From contig JBAYJE010000003.1 in NCBI GenBank assembly GCA_041665265.1, positions 1,424 to 65,423 of the forward strand: 64,000 nucleotides of DNA. Direction: 5' to 3'. The notes under the pieces were generated by a model. That model did not search any database, was not told the DNA's origin, and was given only the letters and a program-made list of their open reading frames with translations. Positions 5,698 through 42,889 of the stretch are shown piece by piece. This stretch comes from Minisyncoccota bacterium (lineage in GTDB: Bacteria > Patescibacteriota > Minisyncoccia > UBA6257 > GWB1-50-10). The first letter of the stretch is position 1. Each line of letters starts with the position of its first letter. A program made the translations under genes and the position numbers.

Positions 5698-6429
5698 ATG
5701 ACAAAAAATATAAGAATTACAGCAGTAATCGCCATTGTAGCGATCATTGGGGTGACTTACGGGATTTACACCCTTTCAGGACACAAAGCCCCGCGTGAGG
5801 GCAATGTTGCGCCCGTAGAAGGAACGGTAAGCCAGGCCGAACTAGACCGGGCAACCGCTTCCCTCAAAAGCGCAATTAACGTAGCTGATCAACTTTCCGG
5901 CACCACCGGCACAAGCTTCACCTTTCAGGCACAGCCGACCTATGGCCACTACGGGAACTTCGGTCTCGTAAAGTATGTGAACCAAGTTAAGGGCGTGGGG
6001 CTGGTTGATGAGACAGCCGTCACATTTCACGGCGAGACTGACAATGACAATGCCGAGGTCGATTCGAAAACCGGCCAAGTCATCTCTTTTCACCGATCCA
6101 TTGACCACACCAACCCCGGAAAAGAAAAAACTCAAGCGGAAATAGAAACCACTATGCGGATATTCCTCAATGAGGTGTACCCGGACTTTAAGCAGGTCGA
6201 GCCGACACTGACATTCAGTCCCGGTATAAAAGGCGTTCGCCTTAACAATGGCAATTACTTCTTTGACTGGGAGGATAACGACTACCAGAAGCAGCTGCCC
6301 GAAGGGGTTGAGACAGAACGTGCTCCGTTCATCCAGGTCGGTATTACTTCAAGCGGATATATCTTCAGCTACAACAACACGATTGATATTTACCGCAATG
6401 CGCTAAAAGAATTTAATCTCACCCAATAA
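5698..6429 (+). CDS. Hypothetical membrane-anchored (N-terminal TM) extracytoplasmic protein, element cargo
   Basis: N-terminal 'ITAVIAIVAIIGVTYGIYTL' is a TM helix and the remainder is hydrophilic. It ends 2 nt before the recombinase gene. Confidence 0.5.
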   Translation: MTKNIRITAVIAIVAIIGVTYGIYTLSGHKAPREGNVAPVEGTVSQAELDRATASLKSAINVADQLSGTTGTSFTFQAQPTYGHYGNFGLVKYVNQVKGVGLVDETAVTFHGETDNDNAEVDSKTGQVISFHRSIDHTNPGKEKTQAEIETTMRIFLNEVYPDFKQVEPTLTFSPGIKGVRLNNGNYFFDWEDNDYQKQLPEGVETERAPFIQVGITSSGYIFSYNNTIDIYRNALKEFNLTQ

Positions 6430-6431
6430 CT

Positions 6432-8045
6432 ATGCACCAGGAAGTATCACAAAAACTTAAATACTTCCTCTACGCAAGAAAGTCCTCTGAACAGGAGGAC
6501 AGACAAGTCGCTTCGATTGATTCGCAAATAGATTTTTTGAAAGATTTAGCAAAGCGTGAACACCTCGAGATCGTAGAGGTACTAACTGAATCCAAAAGTG
6601 CCAAAGCCCCGGGTAGGCCAATCTTTAACCAGATGACCGATCGGATTGAAAAGGGCGAAGCGCACGGCGTTATCTGCTGGAAGATAGACCGCCTAGCCCG
6701 CAATCCGGTGGACGGCGGTAAAGTGCAGTGGCTTTTACAAAGCAGCATTATCAAGCACATCAAGACCTTTGAGAGAAGCTATTACCCGTCTGATAATGTG
6801 CTCCTCATTAGCGTGGAGCTGGGCATGGCCAACCAATACATCCGTGACTTGGCCATCAATTCCCAGCGTGGAGTCAAAACCAAAGCAGCAACCGGCTGGT
6901 TCCCGGCCCCAGCTCCGATCGGATATTTGAACATAGCCGACAACGAATCAGGCATGAAAATTATCGGGAATGATCCGAAGCGTTTTGATCTGGTAAAAAA
7001 GATGTTTGAGCTGATGCTCACCGGTAATTATTCAGTACCGCGCATTCTTAAAATTGCTAACGGCGACTGGAGTTTCAGGATGCCGAGCGGACAGCCGATT
7101 GCCCGGAGCACGCTGTATAAACTTCTGACTGAGCCGTTTTATTACGGCCGGTATCAGTGGCCCAAAAAAGGCGGCATCTGGTACCAGGGCAAGCACGAAC
7201 CGATGATCACCGAAGAACAGTTTGACCGCATTCAGGAACTGCTGGGCCGAAAAGGAAAACCGCGCCCCAAAGTCCACGAATTTGCCTATACCGGCATGAT
7301 CCGCTGCGGTGAATGTGGTTGCCTCATCACGGCCGAAGAAAAGACTAAGCGTAATCAGAATGGCAACGTACATCACTACACTTACTATCACTGCACCAAA
7401 CGAAAAGGCCCCTGCACCCAAAGATGCGTCGAAGTAAAAGCCCTCGAGGTAGAAATCCAGAAAGCCCTTGCCACGATCGAGATACCGGAAGAATTTCACG
7501 ACTGGGCCATGAACTGGCTCCGGGTTGAGAACGCAAAAGAATCAGTTGACCGGAATACTATCCTGGCCACCCAGCAGAGAACGTATGAAGCATGTCTGAG
7601 AAAAATTGACCGGCTCATCGACATGAGAGCAGCCGGAGAAATAAGCGAAGAAGAATTTATAACAAAGAAAAATGAAAGTTTGAAAGAGAAAGCAAAACTT
7701 CAGGCACTGCTCAAAGCGACAGATGAACGAGCAGACAGCTGGCTTCAGACAGCAGAGCAAATACTTATATTCGCACAGGATGCACGGGAAAAGTTCGCCG
7801 GAGGCACACTTTCGGCAAAGCGCACGGTACTTTCAGCCCTTGGTTCGAACCTCCTGCTAAAAGACAAAAAACTCAATGGTGAACTGGATAAAGCCTTGTT
7901 ACCGCTGCAAAGGATCGCAGAAGCCGTCCGCGAGCATGCAAGACGGTTCGAACCTCTAACAAATCCAAGAAACAAACTGACATTCGAGGAACTTTGCATG
8001 CAAAGTCCAAACTGGCTGCGGGACCTGGATTCGAACCAAGATTGA
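6432..8045 (+). CDS. Large serine recombinase (integrase)
   Basis: N-terminal resolvase catalytic domain 'YARKSSEQEDRQVASIDSQ' (Ser nucleophile) and 'KIDRLARN', then a recombinase domain and a Cys-rich zinc ribbon 'CGECGCLITAEE...YYHCTKRKGPC'. It is 537 aa, and the last 33 nt overlap the tRNA-Gln 3' end. Confidence 0.9.
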   Translation: MHQEVSQKLKYFLYARKSSEQEDRQVASIDSQIDFLKDLAKREHLEIVEVLTESKSAKAPGRPIFNQMTDRIEKGEAHGVICWKIDRLARNPVDGGKVQWLLQSSIIKHIKTFERSYYPSDNVLLISVELGMANQYIRDLAINSQRGVKTKAATGWFPAPAPIGYLNIADNESGMKIIGNDPKRFDLVKKMFELMLTGNYSVPRILKIANGDWSFRMPSGQPIARSTLYKLLTEPFYYGRYQWPKKGGIWYQGKHEPMITEEQFDRIQELLGRKGKPRPKVHEFAYTGMIRCGECGCLITAEEKTKRNQNGNVHHYTYYHCTKRKGPCTQRCVEVKALEVEIQKALATIEIPEEFHDWAMNWLRVENAKESVDRNTILATQQRTYEACLRKIDRLIDMRAAGEISEEEFITKKNESLKEKAKLQALLKATDERADSWLQTAEQILIFAQDAREKFAGGTLSAKRTVLSALGSNLLLKDKKLNGELDKALLPLQRIAEAVREHARRFEPLTNPRNKLTFEELCMQSPNWLRDLDSNQD

Positions 8046-17489: not shown

Positions 17490-19647
17490 CACAGGCTTTA
17501 TTTGAGCAACGCTCGGGAATCGTTTTTGTGCCTTCCATCATAAGTGAGCCACAAAGATCACATTTATTACCCGTAGGACGAGATTTCATTATAAATTTGC
17601 AGGAAGGGTAATTTGAACAACTAAAAAATGCGCCAAAGCGTCCGCGACGTTCTATGATATCCCCATTATCGAGTGGACATTTTACGCCCGTACGCTTCTT
17701 AGCCTCTTCTTCGGGGCTTTGTTTAATATAATGACAGCCTTTTTTTCCGCGGGACCAATTACTGCACGCGATGAATTTCCCAAATCGTCCCTCGCGTTCA
17801 AGAAGTTTCCCGCCACAATCGGGACATAATTCTCCCGTTTCCTTTGGTCCTTCCATAAGAGTGCCATCGAGTTTGCGCGCACCTTTGCATTGTTTTGTCT
17901 TATCCTTTTCGTCAAAGAGACGGCAGCTCAAAAACTTTCCTGCACGACCAAGTTTAATAACCATGGTGCCGTGTGAGGCATCAAGAGGACAGGTGAAACG
18001 AGCATCTTCTCCAAGTGTGGTAGCTTTCTCTAACTTATCCTTTTCTTTCACTTCTTTTACAAACGGAATATAGAAATCTTTCAATACTTTTTTGTATTCC
18101 TTCTTTCCTTCTGCAATTTCATCAAGTTTATTCTCCATTTCCGCAGTAAATGAATCACTAATGTAGTTTGCAAAATTCTTTTCCAAGAAATCACTCACTA
18201 CTTCGCCGGTATCAGTGGGATGAAGCGTTTTATTTTGCTTCTCAATGTAACCACGTTCATCAAGAGTGCGGATAATAGCAGCGTACGTACTCGGACGGCC
18301 AATTTCGCGCTTTTCAAGTTCTTTTACAAGTCCTGCTTCTGTATAACGCGGAAGGGGTTCTGTTTCTTTTCCCTCACTTTCGATTGAGACGAGAGTTAAT
18401 GGCTCATCCTTCTCTAAATGAGGAAGCTCATGTTCTTCACCGCGCGCACCCGTATCAGCCATAAGCCATCCAGGGAAGATAACAATATTACCGGTCATCG
18501 AAAAAAATGGAATTTCGGCACCTTTTGCTTCTGCAACTATCTTAGTACGAAGCAATTGAGCGTCGGTCATTTGAGATGCAAGTGTGCGTTGCCAAATGAG
18601 TTCATAAAGTTTTTTCTGCTCATCATTGCCTCCCGCATGATGAAGTGACATTTTTGTAGGACGAATTGCCTCGTGTGCTTCTTGAGCATTTTTACTTTTT
18701 GTCACATAGGTTCGTGGGGAAAGATATTCCTTACCATATGTTTTTTCAATTTCCGTATACATCTCAGCAAGTGCAATGGAGCTTAAATTCACACTGTCAG
18801 TTCTCATATAGGTAATAAACCCTGATTCATACAATTTCTGTGCAATACCCATAGTGCGAGAAGGCGAGTATCCAAGACGCGAGCTTGCCGCTTGTTGGAG
18901 TGTTGAGGTGATAAAGGGAGGTTTTGGTGAGCGTTTTGCTTCAGTCTTTTTTACCGAAGCAATATGCCACGGGTGTGTTCGTGCTGCACCAAGAATGCGT
19001 TCTACTTCCTGTTCATTTTTCGGTTCGTCTTCACAGGTAAGTTCGAGTTGGTGTTTTTCTGTTTTGCACTGTGCTTTAATTACCCAAAAATGTTCTGGGA
19101 TAAATGCACGAATTTCTCGTTCGCGTTCCATAATAATGCGAAGTGCAGGGGATTGTACGCGCCCCGCGGAAAGTCCGTAGCGCACTTTCTTCCAAATAAG
19201 TCCGGAAAGGTCATAGCCTACAAGCCTATCAAGAACACGACGCGCTTCCTGCGCTTTACGAAGATTTTCATCAATCTCGCGAGGATGTTTCATTGCCTCA
19301 AGAATTGCGGGTTCGGTAATCTCGTGAAATACTACCCGTTTCGGATTCTTTAGATTACACGCTTCTTTAATGTGCCATGCAATTGCCTCACCTTCTCGGT
19401 CAGGATCAGTAGCAAGAAGTACTTCATCCGCTTTCTTTGAAAGTTTAATGAGCTCTTCGACAATTTCTGTTTTTGCTTTTGCAATTTCGTAGTGGGGAAT
19501 AAATCCACCGGGAATGTCAATTGCTTTTTTATTACTTTTTGGAAGATCGCGAATATGTCCGACGCTTGCGCGGACTTTGTATTCTCCTTTTAAATATTTT
19601 TCGATTGTCTTCGCTTTTGCGGGACTTTCAACAATAACTAATTTCAT
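17458..19647 (-). CDS. topA: DNA topoisomerase I with C-terminal zinc ribbons
   Basis: 'MKLVIVESPAKAKTIEKYLKGEYKVRASVGHIRDLP' and multiple C-terminal C4 zinc-ribbon motifs. Confidence 0.95.
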   Translation of the reverse strand: MKLVIVESPAKAKTIEKYLKGEYKVRASVGHIRDLPKSNKKAIDIPGGFIPHYEIAKAKTEIVEELIKLSKKADEVLLATDPDREGEAIAWHIKEACNLKNPKRVVFHEITEPAILEAMKHPREIDENLRKAQEARRVLDRLVGYDLSGLIWKKVRYGLSAGRVQSPALRIIMEREREIRAFIPEHFWVIKAQCKTEKHQLELTCEDEPKNEQEVERILGAARTHPWHIASVKKTEAKRSPKPPFITSTLQQAASSRLGYSPSRTMGIAQKLYESGFITYMRTDSVNLSSIALAEMYTEIEKTYGKEYLSPRTYVTKSKNAQEAHEAIRPTKMSLHHAGGNDEQKKLYELIWQRTLASQMTDAQLLRTKIVAEAKGAEIPFFSMTGNIVIFPGWLMADTGARGEEHELPHLEKDEPLTLVSIESEGKETEPLPRYTEAGLVKELEKREIGRPSTYAAIIRTLDERGYIEKQNKTLHPTDTGEVVSDFLEKNFANYISDSFTAEMENKLDEIAEGKKEYKKVLKDFYIPFVKEVKEKDKLEKATTLGEDARFTCPLDASHGTMVIKLGRAGKFLSCRLFDEKDKTKQCKGARKLDGTLMEGPKETGELCPDCGGKLLEREGRFGKFIACSNWSRGKKGCHYIKQSPEEEAKKRTGVKCPLDNGDIIERRGRFGAFFSCSNYPSCKFIMKSRPTGNKCDLCGSLMMEGTKTIPERCSNKACVNHNPHKIKK

Positions 19648-19767
19648 TCCGTTAGGATTTTACCTTTTTAAGGTTATTCTTTTCGACGCCATTTTGTATC
19701 ATTTCATTTTTCATAATGTGTATTTGTAAAACCTTAACGGGATTCATAAACATTCTTTTATACTACC

Positions 19768-20649
19768 TCAATTGTTTTTTATTCTAAACTTTCCACTCAC
19801 TTCTTCGATTATTCCTGAAAAAAGAAGGAGGGTGAGTTTCTCATTCACAATATGAGGTTGTAGTGTAGTCAGCTCAAGTATTTTGTCAATTGAGAGTGGT
19901 TCGTGTGCACTTGTAAGTACTCGCACAATTTGTGATTCAAATTCACTGAGCGCAATATTGTTTTCTCTTGCGCTCGTGAGCGAAGGGGACGTTTCAACAC
20001 CAAGGTCTTCTAGAATATCTGCGCAGTTTGTCACAAGGCGCGCACCATTTCGAATGAGCATATGAGAACCTTTATAGTTAGCATTATTCACACTTCCGGG
20101 AAAGACAAATACCTCGCGTCCTTGTTCAATTGCATTGCGTGCGGTGGCAATTGAGCCTGAGCGAAGTGGCGCTTCAATAACGATAGTTGCGATAGAAAGA
20201 CCACTTACAATACGATTCCGCTCAAGAAATTGATTTGGATATGCAGGAGTTCCTTCTACGTATTCTGAAATGAGACATCCACCGGACTCAAGAATGTGCT
20301 CTGCAAGATGTTCGTGCTGACGAGGATACACATGGTCAAGACCATTTGCAAGTACTGCAATAGTGCGACCGCCCGCCTTAAGTGTCCCTTCATGCGCGGC
20401 GGCATCAATACCGAGTGCGAGACCACTCACGATAGTAATGCCACGTAAGGCAAGTGTTTCAGCAAGTTCGTGTGCAAGTGCTAATCCCTCACGCGATGCT
20501 TTTCGTGTGCCTACAATTGCAACACATGATTCATGTGAGGTGGGAAGAATGCCACGATAGTAAAGTGTGTTAGGCGCTCCAGGAATTTCGGAGAGGAGAG
20601 GAGGATATAATTCTGATTCTTCGTGTAGAACACACACCGGAAGTTTCAT
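19768..20649 (-). CDS. dprA: DNA processing protein DprA (Smf)
   Basis: 'VAIVGTRKASREGLALAHELAETLALRGITIVSGLALGIDAAAHEGTLKAGGRTIAVLANGLDHVYP'. Confidence 0.9.
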   Translation of the reverse strand: MKLPVCVLHEESELYPPLLSEIPGAPNTLYYRGILPTSHESCVAIVGTRKASREGLALAHELAETLALRGITIVSGLALGIDAAAHEGTLKAGGRTIAVLANGLDHVYPRQHEHLAEHILESGGCLISEYVEGTPAYPNQFLERNRIVSGLSIATIVIEAPLRSGSIATARNAIEQGREVFVFPGSVNNANYKGSHMLIRNGARLVTNCADILEDLGVETSPSLTSARENNIALSEFESQIVRVLTSAHEPLSIDKILELTTLQPHIVNEKLTLLLFSGIIEEVSGKFRIKNN

Positions 20650-20695
20650 AATGTGGTAAAATAATTATATACTACGCGTTTGTAGAGAAGCACGT

Positions 20696-21235
20696 TTGTT
20701 TTTGAGTATGGATGTATTTAAGAAAAAAATAACGATTGAGGGACTTATTACGGCAATTATTATAATTGCAATTTCTGGAGGAATTTATTTTTTTGCTTCT
20801 AAAATAACTGCCTACTCAAATGAGATTCTCACATTGCGTACCGAACTTGCATTGCGTTCAAGTTCACTCACTATGCTTGCAAACCTACGTTCCGAGTACA
20901 TTTCCAAAGCACAGAAAGATTTTACGGCATTACAAAATATAATTCCGGTGAAGGATCAGCTCATTAATATTGCAAAAGATTTTCAGTTTATTGCAACTCA
21001 GGCAGGATTTGATTCAACCTTTTCATTTATGAGCGAATCACCCGCAACCGTAAATACATTAGGCTTTCTTAGTTTTAAACTGACTTTCGGTGGCGATTTT
21101 GATAAATTACTTGAGTTTGTAAAGACATTACAAGACTTCCGTTATCTCTCCGATTTCACTAATTTTACGATTACGCGCGGAAAAGATAAGGCACAACTGT
21201 CAGTAAATGGAAAAGTATTTTTTAGACTCCCATAA
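20696..21235 (+). CDS. Hypothetical membrane protein, possibly a PilO/PilN-like pilus/competence assembly component
   Basis: A single N-terminal TM plus a coiled coil. It is divergent from dprA. No decisive motif. Confidence 0.3.
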   Translation: MFLSMDVFKKKITIEGLITAIIIIAISGGIYFFASKITAYSNEILTLRTELALRSSSLTMLANLRSEYISKAQKDFTALQNIIPVKDQLINIAKDFQFIATQAGFDSTFSFMSESPATVNTLGFLSFKLTFGGDFDKLLEFVKTLQDFRYLSDFTNFTITRGKDKAQLSVNGKVFFRLP

Positions 21236-21236
21236 T

Positions 21237-21464
21237 ATGAAAAATCTATTTAATAAAGGAATAAAACTTCATTTTTCTCGTCAGGGTTTCTTTTCCATCC
21301 TTGCGGTTGTTCTTATTATCATTATTGTAGGACTCGTGATTTATCTTTCTACCTTCCTTATATCCAACTTTGGGACAGCATTAGAACTAGGAGGAGAGGG
21401 TGTTCCTAAAGAACAGTTTGACATCAAGGGCTTCGAAACGCTAAATTTAGTGAAGCCACAATAG
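21237..21464 (+). CDS. Small membrane protein
   Basis: 'FFSILAVVLIIIIVGLVIYLSTFLI' is a TM helix. The ATG is 1 nt after the upstream stop. Confidence 0.4.
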   Translation: MKNLFNKGIKLHFSRQGFFSILAVVLIIIIVGLVIYLSTFLISNFGTALELGGEGVPKEQFDIKGFETLNLVKPQ

Positions 21465-21479
21465 GAATATAACTGATTC

Positions 21480-21551
21480 GGGTGTGTAGTTCAGTGGTAG
21501 AACGCTGTCCTGATAAGACAGAGGTCGAAGGTTCGATTCCTTCCACACCCA
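21480..21551 (+). tRNA. tRNA-Ile (anticodon GAU)
   Basis: GGGTGTG-TA-GTTC-AGTGGTA-GAAC-G-CTGTC-CTGATAA-GACAG-AGGTC-GAAGG-TTCGATT-CCTTC-CACACCC-A. Confidence 0.85.
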
Positions 21552-21587
21552 CAAAGAAAGGCCTTGTGAGGAGGTCTTTTCTTTAGC

Positions 21588-21661
21588 GGGCCTGTAGCTC
21601 AGTTGGTTAGAGCGCCTCATTTGCAATGAGGAGGTCACCGGTTCGAATCCGGTCAGGTCCA
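21588..21661 (+). tRNA. tRNA-Ala (anticodon UGC) with a G3:U70 identity pair
   Basis: GGGCCTGTAGCTCAGTTGGTTAGAGCGCCTCATTTGCAATGAGGAGGTCACCGGTTCGAATCCGGTCAGGTCCA. Confidence 0.85.
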
Positions 21662-21769
21662 CAAATTGCTCTTTTGGGTAGAAGTGTCCCACTTAACAAA
21701 TAGAGAGTTCTACTCAATTTAGTATTGATTTGAAAAATGGGTCGCGATAGATAATACTTATATACGTAG

Positions 21770-21979
21770 ATGGAAAGCACGGAACAAAAAAACGAAAACT
21801 CATCGATTTTAGTAATATGTCCCGAATGTAAGGGGTCATTTTATTTACAATCAATAGAATTAGGTATACTTCGCCCATGCCCTTTTTGCGGTAAAACAGT
21901 GACTTTTGATAAGGTCGAAGTGAATCAAAAAAAAGATGAAGTTGAATCTACTAAATCCTCGAGGAAAGAGGTGGCCTGA
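21770..21979 (+). CDS. Small zinc-ribbon protein (CPxC...CPFC)
   Basis: 'ILVICPECKGSFYLQSIELGILRPCPFCGKTVTF'. It overlaps the next ORF by 44 nt in a different frame. Confidence 0.45.
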   Translation: MESTEQKNENSSILVICPECKGSFYLQSIELGILRPCPFCGKTVTFDKVEVNQKKDEVESTKSSRKEVA

Positions 21980-22928
21980 TTTTTATGGAGATAGGTCCTC
22001 TATTAGAAATAGAGTCGAGTCAAATCCAGCGGTTAAAGAATTAATAGACTGCGGTCTTTTATTAACCAAAGAACTCAACACTTTGTTGTTGGGTTTTTTG
22101 ATTAAGAATAGAAGAATACAAGAATTAATCACTGCGCCTACAACAATAAATGATAAAGATTGGTCAGAAAAAGACACGACCGAGGTTATTAAAATTTATG
22201 ATGAACAAACTATTGGGAAGTCTAAAGACGAGGGGAAAAAGATCCTAACTCATCTCATTGATAACCATCAGAAAAAAATTGCTTCAGAAAAAAGGAAGAA
22301 AAGAAAAGTAGAAATTAAATCAATATCAGATGATTTGGAAGATGAATTGAGTAATTTCCGCACCCTAAAAAACTTGAATATATCAACACTTATTCATACA
22401 AACCTTTATTATTGCCCTGACTGTGCTGAAATTTTTAGAAAAGATACTTTTTATTCCGGTAAATGTTATTGTGGGAAGCAATTGAGTAGGGTATCTGAAA
22501 CTAACCAGGATAGTATAGCGTGTATAAGTGATGATGTTGAGATTTTTGTTAAGAATAATATGTGGTTAGAGCACGGTGTAGAAAGACAATTTTCAATAAA
22601 TGGTTATAATACCGCCTGTGGAGTAAATATTATGGGCTCATCGGGGGTTTCGCATGAAGTAGATGTTTTAGCAGAGTCTGCGTCAAAGAATAAGAGGATT
22701 ATTGGGGAGTGCAAAAATCGAGAAATTGACATATCAGATGTCTTTAAATTATATGGCCAAATGGCAGACACTGGTTGTAATATCGGATTTATATTTTCCA
22801 CAGGTGTTGTTCAGGACCCTCAGAAAAGTAGGCAGGTGTTTAGACTCGCATCTTCAAAAAACATTAGGATTATTGATGGAATTCTGGAAAATACTTCCGA
22901 GCGGCTCAATGAGCTTATTTTAAATTAG
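21936..22928 (+). CDS. Mrr-cat / PD-(D/E)xK restriction-endonuclease-like protein with an internal zinc ribbon
   Basis: The C-terminal 'GSSGVSHEVDVLAESASKNKRIIGECKNREIDISDV...IGFIFSTGVVQD' fits the Mrr catalytic domain (D...ExK). It has the zinc ribbon 'YYCPDCAEIF...GKCYCGKQL'. The segment is ~33% GC. Confidence 0.55.
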   Translation: MKLNLLNPRGKRWPDFYGDRSSIRNRVESNPAVKELIDCGLLLTKELNTLLLGFLIKNRRIQELITAPTTINDKDWSEKDTTEVIKIYDEQTIGKSKDEGKKILTHLIDNHQKKIASEKRKKRKVEIKSISDDLEDELSNFRTLKNLNISTLIHTNLYYCPDCAEIFRKDTFYSGKCYCGKQLSRVSETNQDSIACISDDVEIFVKNNMWLEHGVERQFSINGYNTACGVNIMGSSGVSHEVDVLAESASKNKRIIGECKNREIDISDVFKLYGQMADTGCNIGFIFSTGVVQDPQKSRQVFRLASSKNIRIIDGILENTSERLNELILN

Positions 22929-23116
22929 AAAAACCTCAAATCTTTTCAAGCAACTTCCCTCAACTTCGTCTTTTCAATCCACTCGGCTATTCTAATAATC
23001 TACGTCGTTATAGTCATTTTTGTTCCAACTAGTTAATACAAGGTCCACCACAGAATGTGATATGCACGGACGCAAAGCCGTTTTATCTTATTCGTATACC
23101 GCAGTACAATGACAAT

Positions 23117-23428
23117 ATGAAAAAGAAGGAATATTTTATGAGGAGTTTTCTTAACGCTACGGGAGTTCTCGCATACATATCTCTGGTAGCGGGGTTCTTA
23201 TTCAACGGTAAACAACTATTTGGAAAAGAGGAAACTTTTCTCCTTCCAATCCTCATGCTTCTTCTTTTTGTTACATCCGCAGCAATCACAGGGTCTCTTG
23301 TGTTGGGAAAACCAATTCACCTTTATCTGAGCGGTCTTAAAAAAGAAGCGTTCACAATGCTTTTTGCTACGATTGGTTGGCTTGTTCTTTTTCTTGTTGT
23401 GATTATCGGAATATTGCTAGTGCAATGA
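23117..23428 (+). CDS. Hypothetical 3-TM membrane protein
   Basis: 'MKKKEYFMRSFLNATGVLAYISLVAGFLF...' has three hydrophobic helices. Confidence 0.45.
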   Translation: MKKKEYFMRSFLNATGVLAYISLVAGFLFNGKQLFGKEETFLLPILMLLLFVTSAAITGSLVLGKPIHLYLSGLKKEAFTMLFATIGWLVLFLVVIIGILLVQ

Positions 23429-23706
23429 AGATACTCAAGAAAGTTCAACACGAATATTTCGAAGCACTTCTCGAAGGACGAAAACAATTTGAGATTCGCC
23501 TCGCAGACTTTAAATATAAACCAGGCGACACGCTGGTACTTTTAGAACAAAAAGAAGGGAAGAGGGAATTGAGCGGAAGAAAGCTCGAATGCGAGATACT
23601 TTTTACAGTGAACACGAAAATAGCTGAACAATTTTGGACGAAAAAGAAAATAGATAAATATGGTCTCGCGGTTCTTTCTCTCCGAAGAAAGTTCAAATTT
23701 AAATAA
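23425..23706 (+). CDS. DUF3850 / ASCH-like (PUA-fold) domain protein
   Basis: 'MKILKKVQHEYFEALLEGRKQFEIRLADFKYKPGDTLVLLEQ' matches the DUF3850 N-terminal signature (KI.PEYFEA..SGKKTFEIRKND...GD.L.L.E). ATGA overlaps the upstream stop. Confidence 0.6.
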   Translation: MKILKKVQHEYFEALLEGRKQFEIRLADFKYKPGDTLVLLEQKEGKRELSGRKLECEILFTVNTKIAEQFWTKKKIDKYGLAVLSLRRKFKFK

Positions 23707-23708
23707 CT

Positions 23709-23921
23709 ATGTTTATTATTTTCGGTATTATCGGACTTCTCATAATATCAACCGCAATCTGGCTAAAGAATGAAAAGAAACAGGATTTCTTGTTCGTTAT
23801 CGGTGGTATTTCACTCCTCATTTATAGCATGAGTATTCACGACCTTATTTTTATAATTCTGCAAATTGTTTTTATTATTTCCGCACTTGTGGAGATTTTT
23901 CGATTACCTAAAAAGAAGTAG
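23709..23921 (+). CDS. Small 2-TM membrane protein
   Basis: 70 aa with two hydrophobic helices. Confidence 0.4.
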   Translation: MFIIFGIIGLLIISTAIWLKNEKKQDFLFVIGGISLLIYSMSIHDLIFIILQIVFIISALVEIFRLPKKK

Positions 23922-24002
23922 GTGAGTATATTGAAAGAAGATTATTTTTATCCACAGGTGTGATTGCTTGCATATTATGAACCTGGGGTGTAGGTTATAG
24001 GT

Positions 24003-24281
24003 ATGAAGCATCACAAACAAGGAACTGCACCAGACAAAGCAAAATCACTAAAACACGCGAAGCAGGCACAAGGCACACTCCTTAAGGTTATTCAGATGAT
24101 TGAAGGGGACAAATATTGTCCAGAAGTTATTCAACAAACACATGCTGCAATCGGTCTTTTACGCACACTCGAACATAACCTTCTTAAGGGTCATCTTGAC
24201 CACTGTGTAGAACATAAATTGCACGAGAATAAGAAACAGACCGTTGATGAATTATTGCGTATTTACAATCTTTCAAAATAA
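24003..24281 (+). CDS. csoR: Metal-sensing repressor of the CsoR/RcnR family
   Basis: 'LLKVIQMIEGDKYCPEVIQQTHAAIGLLRTLEHNLLKGHLDHCV' carries the C-H-C ligands. Confidence 0.8.
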   Translation: MKHHKQGTAPDKAKSLKHAKQAQGTLLKVIQMIEGDKYCPEVIQQTHAAIGLLRTLEHNLLKGHLDHCVEHKLHENKKQTVDELLRIYNLSK

Positions 24282-24284
24282 TCT

Positions 24285-26546
24285 ATGGCACTTACCACAT
24301 TTAAAGTGAAAGGAATGCATTGTGCGAGTTGTGCAGTCATTATTTCAAAACGAATCACTAAACTCCCCGGAGTAAAAAAAGCGGATATTAATTATGCATC
24401 AGAAACAGCAAAGATTGATTTTAATCCTAAAGAAGCACCACTCGAAAAGATAAACGAAGAAATTCGCATGTTGGGATACGAGCTAGAGGATCCACACACA
24501 GGGCATGATATGGGTGCTATGAATATGATGGATTCACAAAATAAGAGTGAGAAGTTGAAGGAGTTAGCCCTCATGAAAAGAAAGGTCAATATAGCGTTTC
24601 CTGTAGCGCTTGTGGTGTTTGCACTTATGATCTGGGACATTATTGCAAAAATGTTTTTACTTCCTGCGCTTCCGCTTTCAATGCAATTGCAGAATGTTAT
24701 TTTTCTTGTATTTTCCACAATAATTCTTTTTTGGGCAGGAAAACCATTCGTGCAAGGATTTGGAAGATTTTTTCGTTACCGAGTAGCAAATATGGACTCA
24801 TTGATTGGTATCGGAACACTTACTGCGTATACCTATAGTGCGGTGTTGGTGCTTATGCCTCAGGCGCGAGATTATTTCTCGTTTCCAGAATATGTTTATT
24901 TTGATGTAGTCATGGTAGTAATTGGGTTTGTATTATTTGGAAAATATCTTGAAGCGCGGTCAAAACTACGCACGGGGGAGGCAATTGAAAAACTGTTAAG
25001 CCTGCAAGCAAAAACAGCCCTCGTGATTCGTGAAGGGCATGAAGTAGAAATATCTCTTGCAGAAGTGGTAGTAGATGATGTTGTGCTCGTGCGTCCAGGA
25101 ACAAAGATTCCAGTTGATGGTGTGATTATTGAAGGAAATTCTGCAGTTGATGAATCTATGATTACTGGCGAATCAATTCCTGTCGATAAACATCCAGGAG
25201 ATGCGGTGGTGGGTGCAACAATAAATAAGCAGGGATCGTTGAAGTGTCGTGTTACACGCATAGGAAGTGCCACAATGCTTTCTCAAATTGTAAAAATGGT
25301 AACTGACGCACAAGCATCAAAAGCACCAATTCAAGCACTTGCGGATAAAATTTCAGGAACATTTGTTCCTGTAGTGCTTGGTATCGCCTCACTTTCGTTT
25401 GTTCTTTGGCTTACGGTGGGTGCATGGCAACTCGGATTCACTGTGGCATTCTCGTATGCTCTTTTATCACTTGTGGGTGTGCTTGTTATTGCATGTCCTT
25501 GCGCACTCGGACTTGCAACTCCTACTGCAATTATTGTAGGCGTAGGCAAGGGGGCCGAACAGGGAATTTTAATTAAAGGAGCAGAATCTCTTGAAGAACT
25601 TTCGCACATAACAACGGTGGTGTTTGATAAAACAGGAACAATAACCGAAGGTTCACCAAAAGTCACCGACATCGTTGTTTCTTCTGAATATAGTGAAAGC
25701 GAAATTATAAAATATGCAGCAAGTATAGAAAGGCATTCCGAACATCCATTAGCTCATGCTATTGTTGCCGACGCAAAGAAAAGAAACATTTCTCTTGTTG
25801 AGCCACTCGATTTTATTGCATATGAAGGAGTTGGTGTAGAAGGTACAATAGAAGGAAAGCGGGTGCGTGTACAAAAACCCACCATAGAAGATATTGCGCA
25901 ATTATCTCTCAATCGATTACATGAAGAAGGAAAGACAACGGCAGTCATTTTTATTAATCAAAAGATTGTTGGTGCATTAGCACTGAGCGACACCCTAAAA
26001 GAAGGCGTACACGAAGCAATTGCAGCACTTCATCAAGTAGGTCTTACTACAGTAATGATTACTGGAGATAATAAGAAAGCAGCGGAATATATTGCTACAC
26101 AGGCAGGCATCGATAAAGTAATTGCCGAAGTTATGCCAAATGAAAAAGCGGCAGCAGTAAAAGAGTTGCAATTACAAGGATTGAAGGTGGCTATGGTAGG
26201 AGATGGAGTAAACGATGCACCTGCACTAATTCAGGCAAATGTAGGTATCGCTATGGCAACAGGAACGGACATCGCAATTGAAGCAGCAGGAATTACCCTT
26301 CTTAAGGGCGATGTACGAAAAGTGGTTCAAGCGCATACACTTGCACGACGTACGATGCGTGTAATACGGCAAAATCTTTTTTGGGCATTCTTTTACAATG
26401 TGATTGGTATTCCACTTGCCGCGGGTGCACTCTTCCCATTTTTTGGAATCTTTCTCAATCCAATGTTTGCAGGCATTGCGATGGCAGGAAGCAGCGTCTC
26501 CGTGGTTGGGAATTCTCTACGATTAAAAACGCTTAACCTTAAATAA
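24285..26546 (+). CDS. copA: Copper-translocating P1B-type ATPase
   Basis: N-terminal HMA 'GMHCASCAV', '[10 protein letters not shown]', 'DKTGTIT', '[10 protein letters not shown]'. Confidence 0.95.
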
Positions 26547-26548
26547 TT

Positions 26549-27571
26549 ATGACTCAATCACAAAAACATCTTTTCCATGTACAAGGTATGCATTGTACTG
26601 CGTGTGGAATCTTAATTAAAGAAACTCTCGAAAATGTTGAGGGAGTAACCTATGTACATGTTGATGATATAAAAAACACCGTAGAAGTAATTCTGGAAAG
26701 CAACGTAAGTAAAGAAGCTATTGTAGAAAATTTTTCCGCGCTCCTTAAAAAGGACGGATACTCGCTTTCAATAGAAAAAGTTGCTCACGCCCCCAAATGG
26801 AAGGAGTTTCGATATGCACTTCCTATTGCACTTGGCATGCTTGGCATCTTTATCTTCTTACAGAAAATTGGCCTTGTGAATCTCATTACTGCAGAGAAGG
26901 TAAATTTACCCGCAGCATTTGGCATCGGTCTTATTGCATCTGTTTCGTCATGCCTTGCGGTAGTGGGAGGATTACTTCTCTCAGTGTCAGCAAATTATGC
27001 GAAAGAAGGAGAAAAAGCAAAACCACAAATTTTCTTTCATGGAGGAAGACTTCTCTCGTTCTTTGTCTTCGGTGGGCTTATTGGTCTTCTTGGATCCGCA
27101 TTCACGTTAAGTGGGGGGGTGATACTTTCTCTGGGAATCTTAGTGAGCGTGGTAATGCTTTCGTTGGGATTAAATCTTCTTGATGTATTTCCATGGACAA
27201 AGCGGTGTCAACCACGAATGCCAAAGTTTCTTGACCATTCCTCTCGAATAAAAAATATGCAGCATAGCGCGGTACCATTCCTTATTGGACTTAGCACTTT
27301 TTTTCTTCCTTGTGGATTTACGCAATCGATGCAGGTATACAGCCTTTCTACCGGTTCATTTCTTGCAGGAGCGCTCACTATGTTTGTATTTGCTCTTGGT
27401 ACACTTCCCGTGCTCGCACTTATTAGTGTAAGCTCAGTAGAGTTTGGAAAAGGAAAATATTCAGGGATCTTTTTCAAAGTCGCAGGTCTTCTTGTGATTG
27501 CATTCGGACTTCTCACCATGATAAGTAGCCTTACTGCTGCGGGTGTTATAAAACCACTTTTTAACCTCTAA
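26549..27571 (+). CDS. HMA metal-binding domain fused to a DsbD_2/CcdA-like polytopic membrane domain
   Basis: 'GMHCTACG' HMA, then ~6 TM helices with cysteines inside TM segments ('SSCLAVVGG', 'FFLPCGFTQS'). Confidence 0.6.
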   Translation: MTQSQKHLFHVQGMHCTACGILIKETLENVEGVTYVHVDDIKNTVEVILESNVSKEAIVENFSALLKKDGYSLSIEKVAHAPKWKEFRYALPIALGMLGIFIFLQKIGLVNLITAEKVNLPAAFGIGLIASVSSCLAVVGGLLLSVSANYAKEGEKAKPQIFFHGGRLLSFFVFGGLIGLLGSAFTLSGGVILSLGILVSVVMLSLGLNLLDVFPWTKRCQPRMPKFLDHSSRIKNMQHSAVPFLIGLSTFFLPCGFTQSMQVYSLSTGSFLAGALTMFVFALGTLPVLALISVSSVEFGKGKYSGIFFKVAGLLVIAFGLLTMISSLTAAGVIKPLFNL

Positions 27572-27574
27572 TTT

Positions 27575-27979
27575 ATGAGAAAAGATTCAAAAATAGTGAG
27601 CGCGAGTATTCTTGCAGGAGCGCTTATTGTTGCTGCACTTATCATAGTACGTTCTACTTCTCCTTCTTTACCTCATACAGGGGATTCCTCAAGTGTTCGC
27701 ATGGAGAACGGAGTTCAATGGATTGAAGTGACTGCACGAGGTGGTTATTCTCCTCGAGTAATAGTTGCTAAAGCAAACATTCCAACAAAATTACGTATGA
27801 TTACACGCAGCACTTTTGATTGCTCTGCAGCATTTGTAATGCCCGCACTTGGCATTCGAGCGATGTTGCCATCTTCAGGTTTAACTAATTTCGATATTCC
27901 ACCACAGTCGGAAGGTTCTGAACTACAAGGTCTTTGTGGAATGGGTATGTATAGTTTTGTTATTCAATTTACGAAATAA
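27575..27979 (+). CDS. Membrane-anchored Cys/Met-rich protein, possibly cupredoxin-like and metal-binding
   Basis: N-terminal TM. The C-terminal 'GLCGMGMYSFVIQF' resembles a cupredoxin tail but lacks the His ligands. Confidence 0.3.
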   Translation: MRKDSKIVSASILAGALIVAALIIVRSTSPSLPHTGDSSSVRMENGVQWIEVTARGGYSPRVIVAKANIPTKLRMITRSTFDCSAAFVMPALGIRAMLPSSGLTNFDIPPQSEGSELQGLCGMGMYSFVIQFTK

Positions 27980-28001
27980 AAAAGTTTGATATACTAATGA
28001 T

Positions 28002-28235
28002 ATGTGGAATTATTATGGAAGACATATGTTTGGATGGGGAGGAGGTGGGTTTGTACTAATTTTATTTTTCTGTATCGTGGTAGTTGCTTTTATTGTATGG
28101 GCTGAATATAAAACATTTTCACCAAGAAACGAGGCAAAAAAGACCGCACTTGAGATTCTGAACGAGCGATATGTAAAAGGAGAGATGGATAAGAAAGAAT
28201 TTGAAGAAAAGAAAAAAGATATTAAAAACAATTAA
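28002..28235 (+). CDS. SHOCT-domain small membrane protein
   Basis: TM helix plus 'ALEILNERYVKGEMDKKEFEEKKKDI' (SHOCT motif). Confidence 0.6.
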   Translation: MWNYYGRHMFGWGGGGFVLILFFCIVVVAFIVWAEYKTFSPRNEAKKTALEILNERYVKGEMDKKEFEEKKKDIKNN

Positions 28236-28238
28236 ATC

Positions 28239-28475
28239 ATGAAACATATAACCATTTACTCAACTCCTTCGTGTGTATACTGCAAAATGGCCAAAGCATA
28301 CTTTGACCAAAAGGGTGTAACCTACACTGAAAAAGATGTATTTGCAGACGAAAAAGCACGAGAAGAGATGATTCAAAAATCTGGACAACTTGGCGTTCCC
28401 GTAATAGATATCGGAGGACAAATTGTCATTGGATTTGATAAGAGCATTATCAATAATCTTTTAGAAACAAAATAA
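28239..28475 (+). CDS. Glutaredoxin/NrdH-like redoxin
   Basis: 'ITIYSTPSCVYCKMAKAYF' is a CxxC thioredoxin-fold motif. 78 aa. Confidence 0.75.
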   Translation: MKHITIYSTPSCVYCKMAKAYFDQKGVTYTEKDVFADEKAREEMIQKSGQLGVPVIDIGGQIVIGFDKSIINNLLETK

Positions 28476-28488
28476 AGTTCAGTATCTC

Positions 28489-28512
28489 AAGCGCCCTTCG
28501 GGGCGTTTTTGT
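28489..28512 (+). terminator. Intrinsic terminator
   Basis: GCGCCC-ttcg-GGGCGT plus TTTTTG. Confidence 0.7.
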
Positions 28513-28543
28513 TTCGTGCAAATGTTCGGTATAGTGAGAGTAA

Positions 28544-29260
28544 ATGAAACTTCATAGATTTATAGGTGATTTTGATTTTTCACACTCTATACTACGGGTT
28601 ACCGAGCGTGACTTTGTTGAACAAGTCATTTCTGTACTTAGACTTGCACGTGGTGAGGAACTGATTTTGTGTGATGGAAAAAGGAATGAAGTGAGAGGAA
28701 AAATCCTTACTTACGAAAAGGGGTTTGTTGAGATTGAAATTCTTGAGAAGAAAAGGAATGAGGCAGAATCTGAATGTGAAGTGACACTTTACCTTTCAAT
28801 ATTAAAGAAAAGTAATTTTGAACTTGCAGCACAAAAAGCGACAGAGGCGGGAGTCACACATCTTACTCCTGTTCTTTCTACGCGCACAGTTAAATTGAAT
28901 ATGCCAGAAGCAAGAATCTCACAAATTATGAAAGAGGCATCGGAGCAATCTGGACGAGGGGTAGTTCCTCAGATTCATAAAGCAATTGATTTTGATATGG
29001 CACTTGAACATGCAAAACAAAACGACGCAAATCTTCTTTTTGATAGCTCTGGCAACTCCATGCACCATATTCTACCCACACTTCAGGATGCACGTCGCAT
29101 AGGAATTTTTATAGGTCCTGAAGGAGGATTTGATCCAGAAGAAGTGTCACGCGCAAAAGAAAAAGGATTTAAAATTGGAAATTTAGGGAAACGTACACTT
29201 CGCGCTGAAACAGCGGCAACTATTGCAACATTTATCATATGCCAATTGCACGAAGAGTAG
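28544..29260 (+). CDS. rsmE: 16S rRNA (uracil1498-N3)-methyltransferase
   Basis: 'MKLHRFIGDF', 'GPEGGFDPEE', 'LGKRTLRAETA'. Confidence 0.8.
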   Translation: MKLHRFIGDFDFSHSILRVTERDFVEQVISVLRLARGEELILCDGKRNEVRGKILTYEKGFVEIEILEKKRNEAESECEVTLYLSILKKSNFELAAQKATEAGVTHLTPVLSTRTVKLNMPEARISQIMKEASEQSGRGVVPQIHKAIDFDMALEHAKQNDANLLFDSSGNSMHHILPTLQDARRIGIFIGPEGGFDPEEVSRAKEKGFKIGNLGKRTLRAETAATIATFIICQLHEE

Positions 29261-29826
29261 CACGGGTTATGGAAGTAATGCAGAAACGCCAAAAAGGACT
29301 TATCATCGTTCTCGAGGACATTTATGATCCACACAACGCAGCTGCCATTTTAAGAAGCGCGGAGGCTTTTGGTGCAGGAACAATCTACTTTATTTTTAAT
29401 ACAGAGAAGGAATTCAACCCTCGCCAAATAGGGAAGAGGAGTTCATCGTCCGCAAATAAATGGCTTGAGTTTAAAATATTTAAGACTATTGAGGAATGTA
29501 CAAAAGAATTAAAGAAACAGAAGTACACTATTATTGCGACTGCACTTATTCCAGACGCAAAATCCATTTTTCGTGCTTCATTTACATCCCCACGCATTGC
29601 GCTCATGTTTGGAAATGAATCGCGCGGTCTTTCACCAAAAGCACTTAGTATTGCTGATGAAGTTGTCTCCATTCCTATGCGAGGCATGGTAGAAAGTCTT
29701 AATCTTTCAGTATCGGCAGGAATCTTTCTTTTTGAGATTACCCGTCGACGCCTCGCAACTATGAAAAAGCATGTACTTACCACTCGCGAAGCTAAAGCTG
29801 CCACCAAGCGTATACTACGGACATGA
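29239..29826 (+). CDS. SpoU/TrmH-family RNA 2'-O-methyltransferase
   Basis: 'VLEDIYDPHNAAAILRSAEAFG', 'GNESRGLS', 'IPMRGMVESLNLSVSAGIFLFE'. Confidence 0.75.
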   Translation: MPIARRVARVMEVMQKRQKGLIIVLEDIYDPHNAAAILRSAEAFGAGTIYFIFNTEKEFNPRQIGKRSSSSANKWLEFKIFKTIEECTKELKKQKYTIIATALIPDAKSIFRASFTSPRIALMFGNESRGLSPKALSIADEVVSIPMRGMVESLNLSVSAGIFLFEITRRRLATMKKHVLTTREAKAATKRILRT

Positions 29827-40028: not shown

Positions 40029-41845
40029 AACTCCATATTAGAAATTTCGTCATAATTGCACATGTAGATCACGGCAAGAGCACTCTTGCCGATCGTCTTT
40101 TGGAAGTCACGGGAACCATTGAAAAAAGGAAAATGAAAGAACAGTATCTCGATCAACTTGAACTTGAGCGGGAGCGTGGTATTACGATTAAAATGGCACC
40201 AGTGCGCATGCATTACACCATGAACGACATGGAGTATATTTTGAATCTTATTGATACACCGGGACACTCTGATTTTTCATATGAAGTTTCTCGCGCGCTT
40301 AATGCGGTGGAAGGCGCAGTGCTTCTTGTTGACGTGACTCAAGGAATCCAAGCACAAACACTCGCAAATTATCGACTCGCAAAAGCAGCTGGCCTCACTG
40401 TGCTTGGTGCATTGAATAAAGTTGATTTCTTTAAACTCGAATCAGGAGAAATTGATTTTGAAAATGACAGGTTGAAAAATCACAGGAGAGACCTCGCTGA
40501 ACTTATTGGGGTATCAGAGAATGAAATTTATTATGTGTCAGGAAAAAGTGGAGATGGCGTTGATGAACTTCTAAAAGGGATTGTCACCAAAGTACCTCCT
40601 CCTCAAGATGAGAAAATTGGAGTGGGTCGTGCATTGGTATTTGATTCTTTCTACGATGACCATAAAGGAATTATCGCGTCTGTTCGAATGTGGAATGGGG
40701 AGGTAAATGGAGAAAATGCGATTTATCTTGTGGCCACAAACACCCATTCAAAAATAAAAGAAATTGGCCACTTTATGCCTCAGTTAAAAGTACTTCCTAT
40801 TCCACAAACACTCTCCGCAGGTGAAATTGGGTACATTGCAACTGGCATTCGGGACCCCGAAAAGATTCGCATTGGAGACACAATACTTATTGGCAATTTT
40901 AAGAATTCAAGTGAGTTAGCATTGCCAGGATATAAAGAAGCAATGTCGGTAGTATTTGTATCATTTTATCCAGAGGAAAATGATGATTTCGAGATGCTCT
41001 CGAAAGGGTTACAAAAATTAAAACTGAATGATTGTGCACTTCATATAGAACCAGACCAAAACGAAGTATTAGGCCGTGGATATAAAGTGGGGTTTTTAGG
41101 AAGGCTCCATTTTGAAATTACGAGTGAACGTCTTTTGCGTGAATTTAATGTGGCAACGGTAAATACATTTCCTTCGGTGCTTTATAAGGTGAAGAAAGGG
41201 GAGGAGTGGCTCATGATTGTAAAACCAGAAGAGTTGCCACAAGATTATGACGAATTGTGGGAGCCAATCATTACTGTAGAAATTATTCTGCCAAATGAAT
41301 ATCTTTCGAGTGTACTCTCACTTCAAAAAAAGTTTCGTTTTTCTGATCTTCATACAGAAACTTTAGGTGATCGTATTCGTCTTATCACTCAAATGCCACT
41401 TGCAGAACTTGTAAGTGATTTCGATGACCAACTAAAGTCCGCCACAAAAGGAATGGCTTCATTCAGTTATGAGTTTGTAAAATATGCAAAAGCGGACATC
41501 GCCCGGGTTGATATTCTCATCTCTCATGAAAGTATTCCGGGTCTTAGTCGCTTTCTTCCAAGGGAATCACTTGAACGAGAAGCGCGTCAAATGGTGTCAC
41601 GCCTAAAAGACCTCCTACCACGCCAGCAGTGGAGTCAACCAATTCAAGCACAATCCGAAGGAAAGATTCTTTCTCGTGATGACATTGCCGCATTACGTAA
41701 GGATGTGACAGGGTATCTCTATGGAGGTGATCGTACACGAAAAATGAAACTCTGGAAGAAGCAAAAACGTGGAAAGAAGAATCTTTTAGAACGTGCAACA
41801 GTACAAATTGCACCTGAAGTATTTAAGGAACTCCTCAAGCGCTAA
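40025..41845 (+). CDS. lepA: Elongation factor 4 (LepA)
   Basis: 'NFVIIAHVDHGKSTLADRLLE', 'ERERGITIK', 'DTPGHSDFSYEVSRAL'. Confidence 0.95.
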   Translation: MKLHIRNFVIIAHVDHGKSTLADRLLEVTGTIEKRKMKEQYLDQLELERERGITIKMAPVRMHYTMNDMEYILNLIDTPGHSDFSYEVSRALNAVEGAVLLVDVTQGIQAQTLANYRLAKAAGLTVLGALNKVDFFKLESGEIDFENDRLKNHRRDLAELIGVSENEIYYVSGKSGDGVDELLKGIVTKVPPPQDEKIGVGRALVFDSFYDDHKGIIASVRMWNGEVNGENAIYLVATNTHSKIKEIGHFMPQLKVLPIPQTLSAGEIGYIATGIRDPEKIRIGDTILIGNFKNSSELALPGYKEAMSVVFVSFYPEENDDFEMLSKGLQKLKLNDCALHIEPDQNEVLGRGYKVGFLGRLHFEITSERLLREFNVATVNTFPSVLYKVKKGEEWLMIVKPEELPQDYDELWEPIITVEIILPNEYLSSVLSLQKKFRFSDLHTETLGDRIRLITQMPLAELVSDFDDQLKSATKGMASFSYEFVKYAKADIARVDILISHESIPGLSRFLPRESLEREARQMVSRLKDLLPRQQWSQPIQAQSEGKILSRDDIAALRKDVTGYLYGGDRTRKMKLWKKQKRGKKNLLERATVQIAPEVFKELLKR

Positions 41846-41885
41846 AAGTGCATCTATAATACCTACTTTTGTATACTATATAAGT

Positions 41886-42128: not shown

Positions 42129-42129
42129 T

Positions 42130-42423: not shown

Positions 42424-42673
42424 ACTCATTATAAGTAAACTCACATCCCATGAGTCATAGATTATTTAAAAAATTAGACGAGGAATTAGATACCATTCTT
42501 GATGATTTTAATAAAAACTTTCATATTCCACCGATTCTTTTGATGGCATTAAAATTGAAACATTCGAACAAAATTCAAGAAATTATTAAAAAATACAGCA
42601 GAAAAAATGACGAAGAGTAAGGAATAAAACCTCTCTATACAATAACTGTATTTCCAGGATATAGTGAAGGAAG

Positions 42674-42866: not shown

Positions 42867-42889
42867 ATAAACCAATAAATACAATACTT

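Follow-up and report, generated by a model that had tools for sequence, protein, structure and literature searches.

A strain-variable gene pair for a small zinc-ribbon protein and a predicted PD-(D/E)xK nuclease beside tRNA-Ala in a Candidatus Paceibacterota genome

Introduction

Predicted or described nucleases with a PD-(D/E)xK catalytic domain of the Mrr or Can2/Card1 kind are found in several settings, and another candidate of this type is encoded, together with a small zinc-ribbon protein, by a two-gene cassette beside the tRNA-Ala gene in the DNA analysed in this study, a window of 64,000 nucleotides (nt) from a Candidatus Paceibacterota genome of the candidate phyla radiation (CPR). 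Coordinates are positions in this window unless another locus is named. Among the closest folds to our model of the nuclease is that of the Mrr-like PD-(D/E)xK protein AF1548 (PDB 1Y88) from Archaeoglobus fulgidus, which is itself uncharacterised. AF1548 differs from the cassette nuclease in having 199 amino acids (aa) and in being without an N-terminal helical domain, an internal zinc ribbon or any known small partner. The nuclease domain is also alike in Can2, Card1, Can1 and Cdn1, the CRISPR ancillary nucleases fused to a CARF domain (VC1899, PDB 1XMX). Unlike Can2 and Card1, however, the cassette nuclease has no CARF match in Pfam or PADLOC, its N-terminal half combines helices with a zinc ribbon, and the cassette encodes a further, separate zinc-ribbon protein. 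Neither CRISPR-Cas nor cyclic-oligoadenylate genes are found in the precomputed Pfam annotation of the loci examined. With Mrr, the Type IV enzyme of Escherichia coli, the cassette nuclease shares a match to the Mrr_cat domain and a solitary state without a methyltransferase, but it has no Mrr_N winged-helix domain (Mrr_cat being the only Pfam match) and instead combines an all-helical N-terminal half and a zinc ribbon with a small partner gene.

A further group of systems that invites comparison consists of enzymes in which a PUA-like reader of modified bases is joined to a nuclease, such as the EVE-HNH enzyme VcaM4I and the SRA-like MspJI and AspBHI. EVE domains of the PUA superfamily act as sensors of base modification in restriction enzymes, and some archaeal type I restriction-modification (R-M) systems have stand-alone EVE and ASCH genes beside them (PMC7641849; PMC6765204). 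This comparison is relevant because a sequence-only reading of the region had proposed that five consecutive genes beside tRNA-Ala, including the nuclease gene and a gene for a DUF3850/ASCH protein, form one undescribed defence module with a separate reader and nuclease. In contrast to the reader-nuclease enzymes, the DUF3850 protein and the nuclease are unfused here, not evidently co-transcribed and not co-inherited.

Results

Comparison with a sister genome reveals that the five genes are two independent units, a mobile zinc-ribbon and nuclease pair and a three-gene backbone operon. The sister locus, L009 (the other loci compared are numbered in the same way), belongs to a congeneric Paceibacterota metagenome-assembled genome (MAG; JBAYKY010000001.1) and was found when species-representative genomes were scanned with the DUF3850 protein. 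Its 12 kb are collinear with window positions 17563-29679, at 66-87% nt identity by blastn, except at 21675-23100. The shared order runs through topA, dprA, a pilO-like gene, the gene of an 85-aa protein, tRNA-Ile, tRNA-Ala, the genes of a membrane protein with three transmembrane segments (3-TM), a DUF3850 protein and a YgjV-like protein, and finally csoR and copA. Homology with L009 ends at 21674, 12 nt past tRNA-Ala(TGC) (21588-21662, plus strand; identified by ARAGORN and Rfam), the 3' side of which bounds the variable segment on the left, and it restarts at 23101, 16 nt ahead of the 3-TM start codon. The variable islet is therefore 21675-23100, a strain-variable, low-GC insert of 1426 bp (delimited by blastn against L009 and by GC) that contains only the first two genes. 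At the position of the insert, L009 has a 1499-bp segment in which the gene of a 472-aa beta-helix protein replaces the zinc-ribbon and nuclease genes. L009 keeps the other three genes, with aa identities of 92% for the 3-TM protein, 100% for the DUF3850 protein and 82% for the YgjV-like protein, and has no cassette; the trio is therefore backbone.

The insert has a guanine-plus-cytosine (GC) content of 34.9%, which is within the lowest 0.6% among window stretches of equal size, and the whole window has 40.4%. A block of about 33% GC holding five genes directly beside tRNA-Ala and ending at csoR had been described by the sequence-only reading. All five open reading frames (ORFs) are present and the low GC is borne out, although the value for 21700-23930 is 35.4%; as an islet, by contrast, the block shrinks to the zinc-ribbon and nuclease genes, since these alone are variable. 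No flanking direct repeats and no att-like copy of the tRNA-Ala 3' end are detected around the islet, where only short matches at chance level occur. The Rfam scan finds no RNA besides tRNA-Ala and tRNA-Ile(GAT), which lies at 21480-21552 on the plus strand (ARAGORN; Rfam tRNA, 77.9 bits) and is kept in L009 as part of the backbone.

These results bear directly on the proposal that the five genes are one Type IV-like modification-dependent system, in which the DUF3850/ASCH protein would read modified bases and direct the Mrr-type nuclease, and the membrane proteins would be accessory components. The lead was reasonable given the EVE and ASCH precedents, and the domains are as stated according to Pfam, yet it fails the comparison of inheritance here. 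The retention of the trio in L009 with the nuclease absent largely refutes it. The nuclease gene is separated from the trio by 188 nt, as against the tight packing inside the trio, where a 4-nt ATGA overlap is followed by a 2-nt gap. Seven further loci, from MAGs of CPR bacteria or labelled 'archaeon', encode homologues of the DUF3850 protein at 58-88% aa identity in unrelated neighbourhoods, and none of the seven has the cassette nuclease or any Mrr-type neighbour. Conversely, the nuclease is without a nearby ASCH or DUF3850 gene in 10 of its 11 other loci. The eleventh, the P0020 locus (JGI 3300072015), does lend the proposal some support, with an ASCH gene (PF04266) about 470 nt upstream of the nuclease inside a mobile element (locus genes at 6170-6532 and 6847-8029). 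A PUA-like reader and a nuclease that are fused or regularly found together across genomes, as the same proposal would lead one to expect, are not seen. Taken together, we consider a five-gene system very unlikely, and the 3-TM/DUF3850/YgjV-like operon, present regardless of the cassette, appears to be functionally unlinked to it. A looser functional tie of the cassette to ASCH-type readers is a weaker possibility. An ASCH-type neighbour is seen in 2 of 12 nuclease loci, which may be chance within mobile DNA.

The second gene of the cassette (21936-22928, plus strand) encodes a protein of 330 aa, as judged from the ORF, its homologues and the structural model, and this protein matches, at 100% identity, an NCBI entry labelled 'MAG: restriction endonuclease [Candidatus Paceibacterota bacterium]'. 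Its residues 211-315 match Pfam Mrr_cat (PF04471) at 22.4 bits against a gathering cut-off of 21, which is marginal; the same family matches 21 of 50 members of the nuclease family, the best at 8.2e-8, and the three closest homologues fall just under the cut-off at 19.1-19.6 bits. The PADLOC model 'PD_DExK, same family as the one fused to CARF' gives a domain-level match with E=2.3e-8. These matches agree with the earlier assignment of a zinc ribbon and a C-terminal Mrr-catalytic domain to this protein. In the alignment of 50 sequences, the ribbon cysteines C160, C163, C177 and C179 (CxxC...CxC) are invariant. Retention of the catalytic residues, on which the assignment as a nuclease depends, is also clear from this alignment, E212, E241, D243 and E258 being invariant and H240 and K260 nearly so. 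Judged by these residues, the protein has an intact, classic PD-(D/E)xK site of the E...D...ExK form.

Structure prediction with AlphaFold2 (AF2) from the 50-sequence alignment gives a model with a predicted local distance difference test score (pLDDT) of 94.3 and a predicted template modelling score (pTM) of 0.87; an alignment of four sequences yielded a pLDDT of 46, which is unusable, and was replaced by the larger one. From models and alignments, residues 1-150 (21936-22385) comprise a conserved, partly ordered N-terminal motif and an all-helical domain with a 49-residue helix (97-145); this part is possibly a sensor or dimerisation domain. Residues 152-197 (22389-22526) form a beta-rich segment with the internal C4 zinc ribbon, as supported by alignment, model and hhalign, and residues 199-330 (22530-22925) form the alpha/beta nuclease domain of Mrr/Can2-Card1-like PD-(D/E)xK type that holds the conserved catalytic residues, all three parts being encoded on the plus strand. 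The closest structures to the model are AF1548 and the nuclease domains of Can2 and Card1, with the CARF domain absent. The structural alignment to Can2/Card1 covers the nuclease domain only (137-199 columns), and no full-length match to the model was found, the BFVD matches being at the level of the nuclease domain only. By its model, the protein is a PD-(D/E)xK nuclease that belongs with Mrr, AF1548 and Can2/Card1 but whose N-terminal half is novel. One homologue, P0025 of locus L023 (2751-3806), has Thr for the catalytic Lys ('ECT' instead of 'ECK') while keeping its small partner, beside a complete type II R-M pair, and may be an inactivated copy.

The first gene of the cassette (21770-21979, plus strand) is an ORF for a 69-aa protein with a CPEC...CPFC zinc ribbon. 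Upstream of it, a promoter-like TTGAAA-17-AATACT at 21730-21758 on the same strand is a consensus match only. Cysteines C17, C20, C37 and C40 are invariant within the pattern 'CPxCxxxF(Y/F)...CPxC'. Searches of Pfam and NCBIfam return only generic zinc-ribbon matches for this protein, all sub-threshold, and the best, to the Lar restriction-alleviation protein (20.1 against 28.6 bits) and the YacG gyrase inhibitor, reflect the CxxC motifs only. PADLOC has no match for this protein or for either of the two membrane proteins of the trio. The 69-aa protein does align with the internal ribbon of the nuclease, with an hhalign probability of 90.5% over 33 columns, in keeping with the similarity noted in the sequence-only reading; the likeness is suggestive of a duplication, but the region is short and rich in Cys.

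The nuclease ORF overlaps the 69-aa ORF by 44 nt in the +1 frame, exactly the overlap in different frames that had been noted from the sequence. Such an arrangement raises the question whether a single gene has been split by a frameshift, be it through a sequencing error, as a pseudogene, by phase variation or by programmed frameshifting. A run of eight A residues (A8; 21927-21934, plus strand), directly 5' of the nuclease ATG, stands exactly at the junction, where loss of one A would fuse the frames, and in seven of the eight cassettes the nuclease is read in frame +1 with respect to the small ORF. These eight are the loci read as DNA in which a small CPxC...CPxC ORF overlaps the nuclease start, with overlaps of 44 nt in the window, 44 in L004, 20 in L005, 20 in L006, 4 in L017, 35 in L018, 38 in L023 and 14 in L024; the P0020 locus, outside this set, adds a ninth with a 59-aa ORF overlapping the nuclease. 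We conclude that the two ORFs are separate genes and not a frameshifted one, because the small ORF recurs across the nuclease start in all eight loci. Several other observations argue against a split gene. The assemblies of JGI, ENA and Logan agree in this sequence. Homologues 322-351 aa in length share the conserved N-terminal motif as their starting point and align over 99% of the query, and inspection of longer family members brought up no fused form. Other cassettes lack the A-run, the overlap varies from 4 to 44 nt with L017 in the other frame, and an AGGAGG, a Shine-Dalgarno sequence, is located just 5' of the nuclease ATG in L005 and L006. A single broken gene is accordingly extremely improbable, and the suggestion of a frameshift-split gene is not upheld. 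Programmed frameshifting at the A8 run was rejected on the same grounds, namely the unconserved run and the variation in overlap length and frame. A link between the type of N-terminal motif of the nuclease ('PKGKxWP' or 'LPPL') and the presence of a partner was also considered and dropped, as P0020 has 'LPPL' and yet has the overlapping upstream ORF.

A word-indexed search alone finds only three relatives of the nuclease, at 41-51% identity, while an exhaustive profile search brings up 230 cluster representatives with E<=1e-3, of which 66 reach E<=1e-30, clusters being defined at 50% identity. Most are 320-350 aa long and match end to end. They are found in CPR bacteria (Patescibacteria), DPANN archaea (Pacearchaeota), Zixibacteria and others, the named members are all hypothetical proteins, the clusters are singletons and the distribution is sporadic. 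A metagenome scan with the nuclease alignment recovers only L005 again and no further relative. The family has neither a Pfam family of its own nor a system match in PADLOC (PADLOC-DB v2.0.0), and our literature search found no description of the zinc-ribbon and nuclease pair. By these comparisons the pair is a conserved two-gene cassette of an uncharacterised family.

In each of 11 loci out of 11, the cassette has a lower GC than its flanks of 5 kb on either side, the deficit ranging from 1.2 to 14.7 points, and several of the neighbourhoods are those of mobile or defence DNA. In L017, on a Pacearchaeota chromosome, the cassette is placed amid type I HsdR, RadC, DndB, Dam methylase and an integrase; in L023 it adjoins an N6_N4 methylase and a MutH-like endonuclease; in L021 the nuclease lies within an element with tRNA-Leu and an integrase; and the P0020 element contains an integrase, a D5 primase, an HNH protein, a C5 methylase and MazE. 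The methylases near L017, L023 and P0020 belong to neighbouring systems or are separated from the cassette by other genes. As compared by sequence and composition, the cassette is a horizontally acquired, patchy, low-GC and strain-variable insert on the 3' side of tRNA-Ala.

Other loci have a different character, with the cassette before gyrB in L006, beside tyrS in L004 and after secA in L018, and some of them call to mind our main rival explanation, an accessory nuclease of DNA repair or recombination, that is, a structure- or damage-specific endonuclease with a zinc-ribbon cofactor. In L024 (4037-14215), on a Patescibacteria contig, uvrB and uvrA flank the cassette, lexA lies upstream and uvrC further downstream. 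In L025, from Zixibacteria, the nuclease begins 38 nt past tRNA-Leu and an HhH-GPD glycosylase gene follows 36 nt downstream, while L019 has RmuC directly upstream of the nuclease and a GIY-YIG-like gene downstream. In the window itself, RmuC, topA and dprA lie within 6 kb upstream of the cassette. A repair role fits less well, however, with the absence of the cassette from the same site in the congeneric L009, with the GC deficit in 11 of 11 loci, with the several integrase, R-M or defence-island contexts, and with the sporadic distribution and singleton clusters. Moreover, in small CPR genomes any insert ends up between housekeeping genes. We therefore regard the repair explanation as unlikely. 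Both the cassette in L024 and the DUF3850 gene in L013 are located in gaps between uvr genes, which may be common insertion points in small genomes.

The backbone trio begins with the 3-TM protein of 103 aa (23117-23428), followed by the DUF3850/ASCH protein of 93 aa (23425-23706) and the 70-aa membrane protein (23709-23921), all on the plus strand. The starts at 23117 and 23425 are the likely ones, taken from independent gene calls and not from the longest ORFs. The 3-TM assignment comes from hydropathy. The DUF3850/ASCH call made from the sequence is confirmed by Pfam, with 54.5 bits for DUF3850 (PF12961; cut-off 22.9) and 23.8 for ASCH (PF04266; cut-off 21.2). The protein also matches PHROG 986, 'RNA-binding protein', at 6.7e-12, and its match to PADLOC PDC-M11B is not significant (E=0.006). 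The literature describes DUF3850 as a PUA-like domain whose function is unknown but which probably binds RNA, and which is common in phage ParB-fold fusions. The two small membrane proteins predicted earlier are indeed present, but the one taken to have two transmembrane helices probably has three, as its hydropathy suggests, and corresponds to the C-terminal half of Imp-YgjV (positions 92-158 of 159; 27.4 bits against a cut-off of 23.5). Such a three-helix half-unit is reminiscent of the semiSWEET-type half-transporters that work as dimers. Directly past the trio are csoR (24003-24281; ORF and Pfam) and, 3' of it, copA (24285-26546).

The neighbours of the DUF3850 homologues vary widely. They include infC-rpmI-rplT in L008 and TrkH in L011 and L012, and in L013 the gene is placed between uvrC and uvrA. 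In L010 it lies in a tRNA-rich stretch (tRNA-Ala, tRNA-Gly and tRNA-Ser) with a LAGLIDADG gene, a homing-endonuclease-like ORF (L010 3056-3793; Pfam 6.3e-9) just downstream of it. In L007 and L014 the homologue directly follows tRNA-Ala, its start being within 30 nt of the tRNA gene (L007 5900-6282; L014 1618-1857), like the presumed ancestral state of the window. The 93-aa protein is unusually conserved across Parcubacteria, Saccharibacteria and 'uncultured archaeon' MAGs with a different neighbourhood each time, a combination that may reflect either a highly constrained housekeeping role related to RNA or frequent transfer.

The tRNA-Ala site behaves like a hotspot for cargo exchange, with no integrase or flanking repeats. 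The 472-aa protein of L009 (4230-5648), which has no counterpart anywhere in the window, has a membrane anchor at its N-terminus and a domain of the right-handed beta-helix kind (Pfam Beta_helix, 1e-11). On the far side of the trio, CopA is only 52.6% identical between the window and L009 (6857-9115), with about 66% nt identity over a 767-nt piece, while CsoR next to it is 93% identical and the products of the other flanking genes 84-96%. The low copA identity suggests a second allele replacement or a recombination hotspot adjoining the islet. The only other equally GC-poor stretch of the window (34.4-35%) is at about 41700-43400, beside tRNA-Gly (42674-42745), and contains several small membrane or coiled-coil ORFs, followed by a gene for a 1248-aa repetitive protein at 43221-46967.

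Discussion

The explanation that we favour, and hold to be probable, is that the zinc-ribbon and nuclease genes are a self-contained, mobile and gated nuclease cassette for defence or addiction, beside tRNA-Ala, and that the trio is an independent backbone unit. The part of the sequence-only reading that spoke of an undescribed defence module thus survives for the first two genes, which behave as an undescribed mobile cassette of the defence type, whereas the ASCH protein is not part of it. From the conserved active site, the predicted function of the nuclease would be that of an effector that cuts nucleic acid, and we infer that the pair acts as a defence or addiction module. By analogy with Can2/Card1 and Mrr, the catalytic domain would be gated by non-catalytic parts, and the gate would consist of the helical and zinc-ribbon N-terminal half of the nuclease together with the co-translated small partner. 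The cassette differs from a Type II R-M system in having no cognate methyltransferase beside the nuclease and in being an islet of two genes only; on the window's contig there is no DNA methyltransferase gene within 10 kb on either side. Given that no methyltransferase accompanies the nuclease, self-protection would have to lie in the gate itself or in a requirement for a substrate that is modified or foreign.

How the partner could act is a matter for more tentative proposals. With Type II toxin-antitoxin systems the cassette shares a small upstream gene overlapping the larger nuclease gene, as well as a sporadic, mobile and low-GC occurrence, and we give somewhat less than an even chance to the idea that the partner restrains the nuclease in an antitoxin-like manner, for example by mimicking the nuclease's own ribbon. 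The cassette departs from such systems in that the three distant family members L019, L021 and L025 have the nuclease without a partner, which weakens an obligate antitoxin role. The alternative that the nuclease needs the partner as a subunit for targeting or for binding DNA seems distinctly doubtful to us. A bolder proposal, which we regard as rather unlikely, is that the pair is an undescribed two-gene immune or abortive-infection system typical of ultra-small CPR bacteria and DPANN archaea, in which a Can2/Card1-type nuclease is switched by a ribbon-mimicking partner and not by CARF and cyclic oligoadenylate; the partner would then keep the nuclease inactive and be removed in response to an infection cue.

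Several observations weigh against the view of the cassette as a gated defence or addiction module. The cassette matches no known system, PADLOC giving domain-level matches only, and no homologue of the nuclease is found among INPHARED phages, PLSDB plasmids or IMG/VR. The likeness between the two ribbons spans just 33 Cys-rich columns and could be convergent. The members without a small partner indicate that the nuclease can exist alone, and the neighbourhoods of L024 (uvrB/uvrA, lexA), L025 (HhH-GPD), L019 (RmuC) and L006 (gyrB) are ordinary ones of housekeeping or DNA repair.

In summary, the cassette extends the familiar theme of PD-(D/E)xK nucleases in defence or addiction, and an arrangement of reader plus nuclease of Type IV is not supported. 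The presence of a PUA-like gene near a nuclease gene is insufficient evidence of linkage here, and a single sister genome showed the two to be independent. Few defence systems are recognised in CPR bacteria and DPANN archaea, whose small genomes have little room for spare genes. If our explanation is true, the cassette would be a further candidate for an immune or addiction module in lineages whose interactions with phages are hardly known, and a Can2/Card1-type nuclease domain would work in them outside CRISPR signalling, under a different gate.

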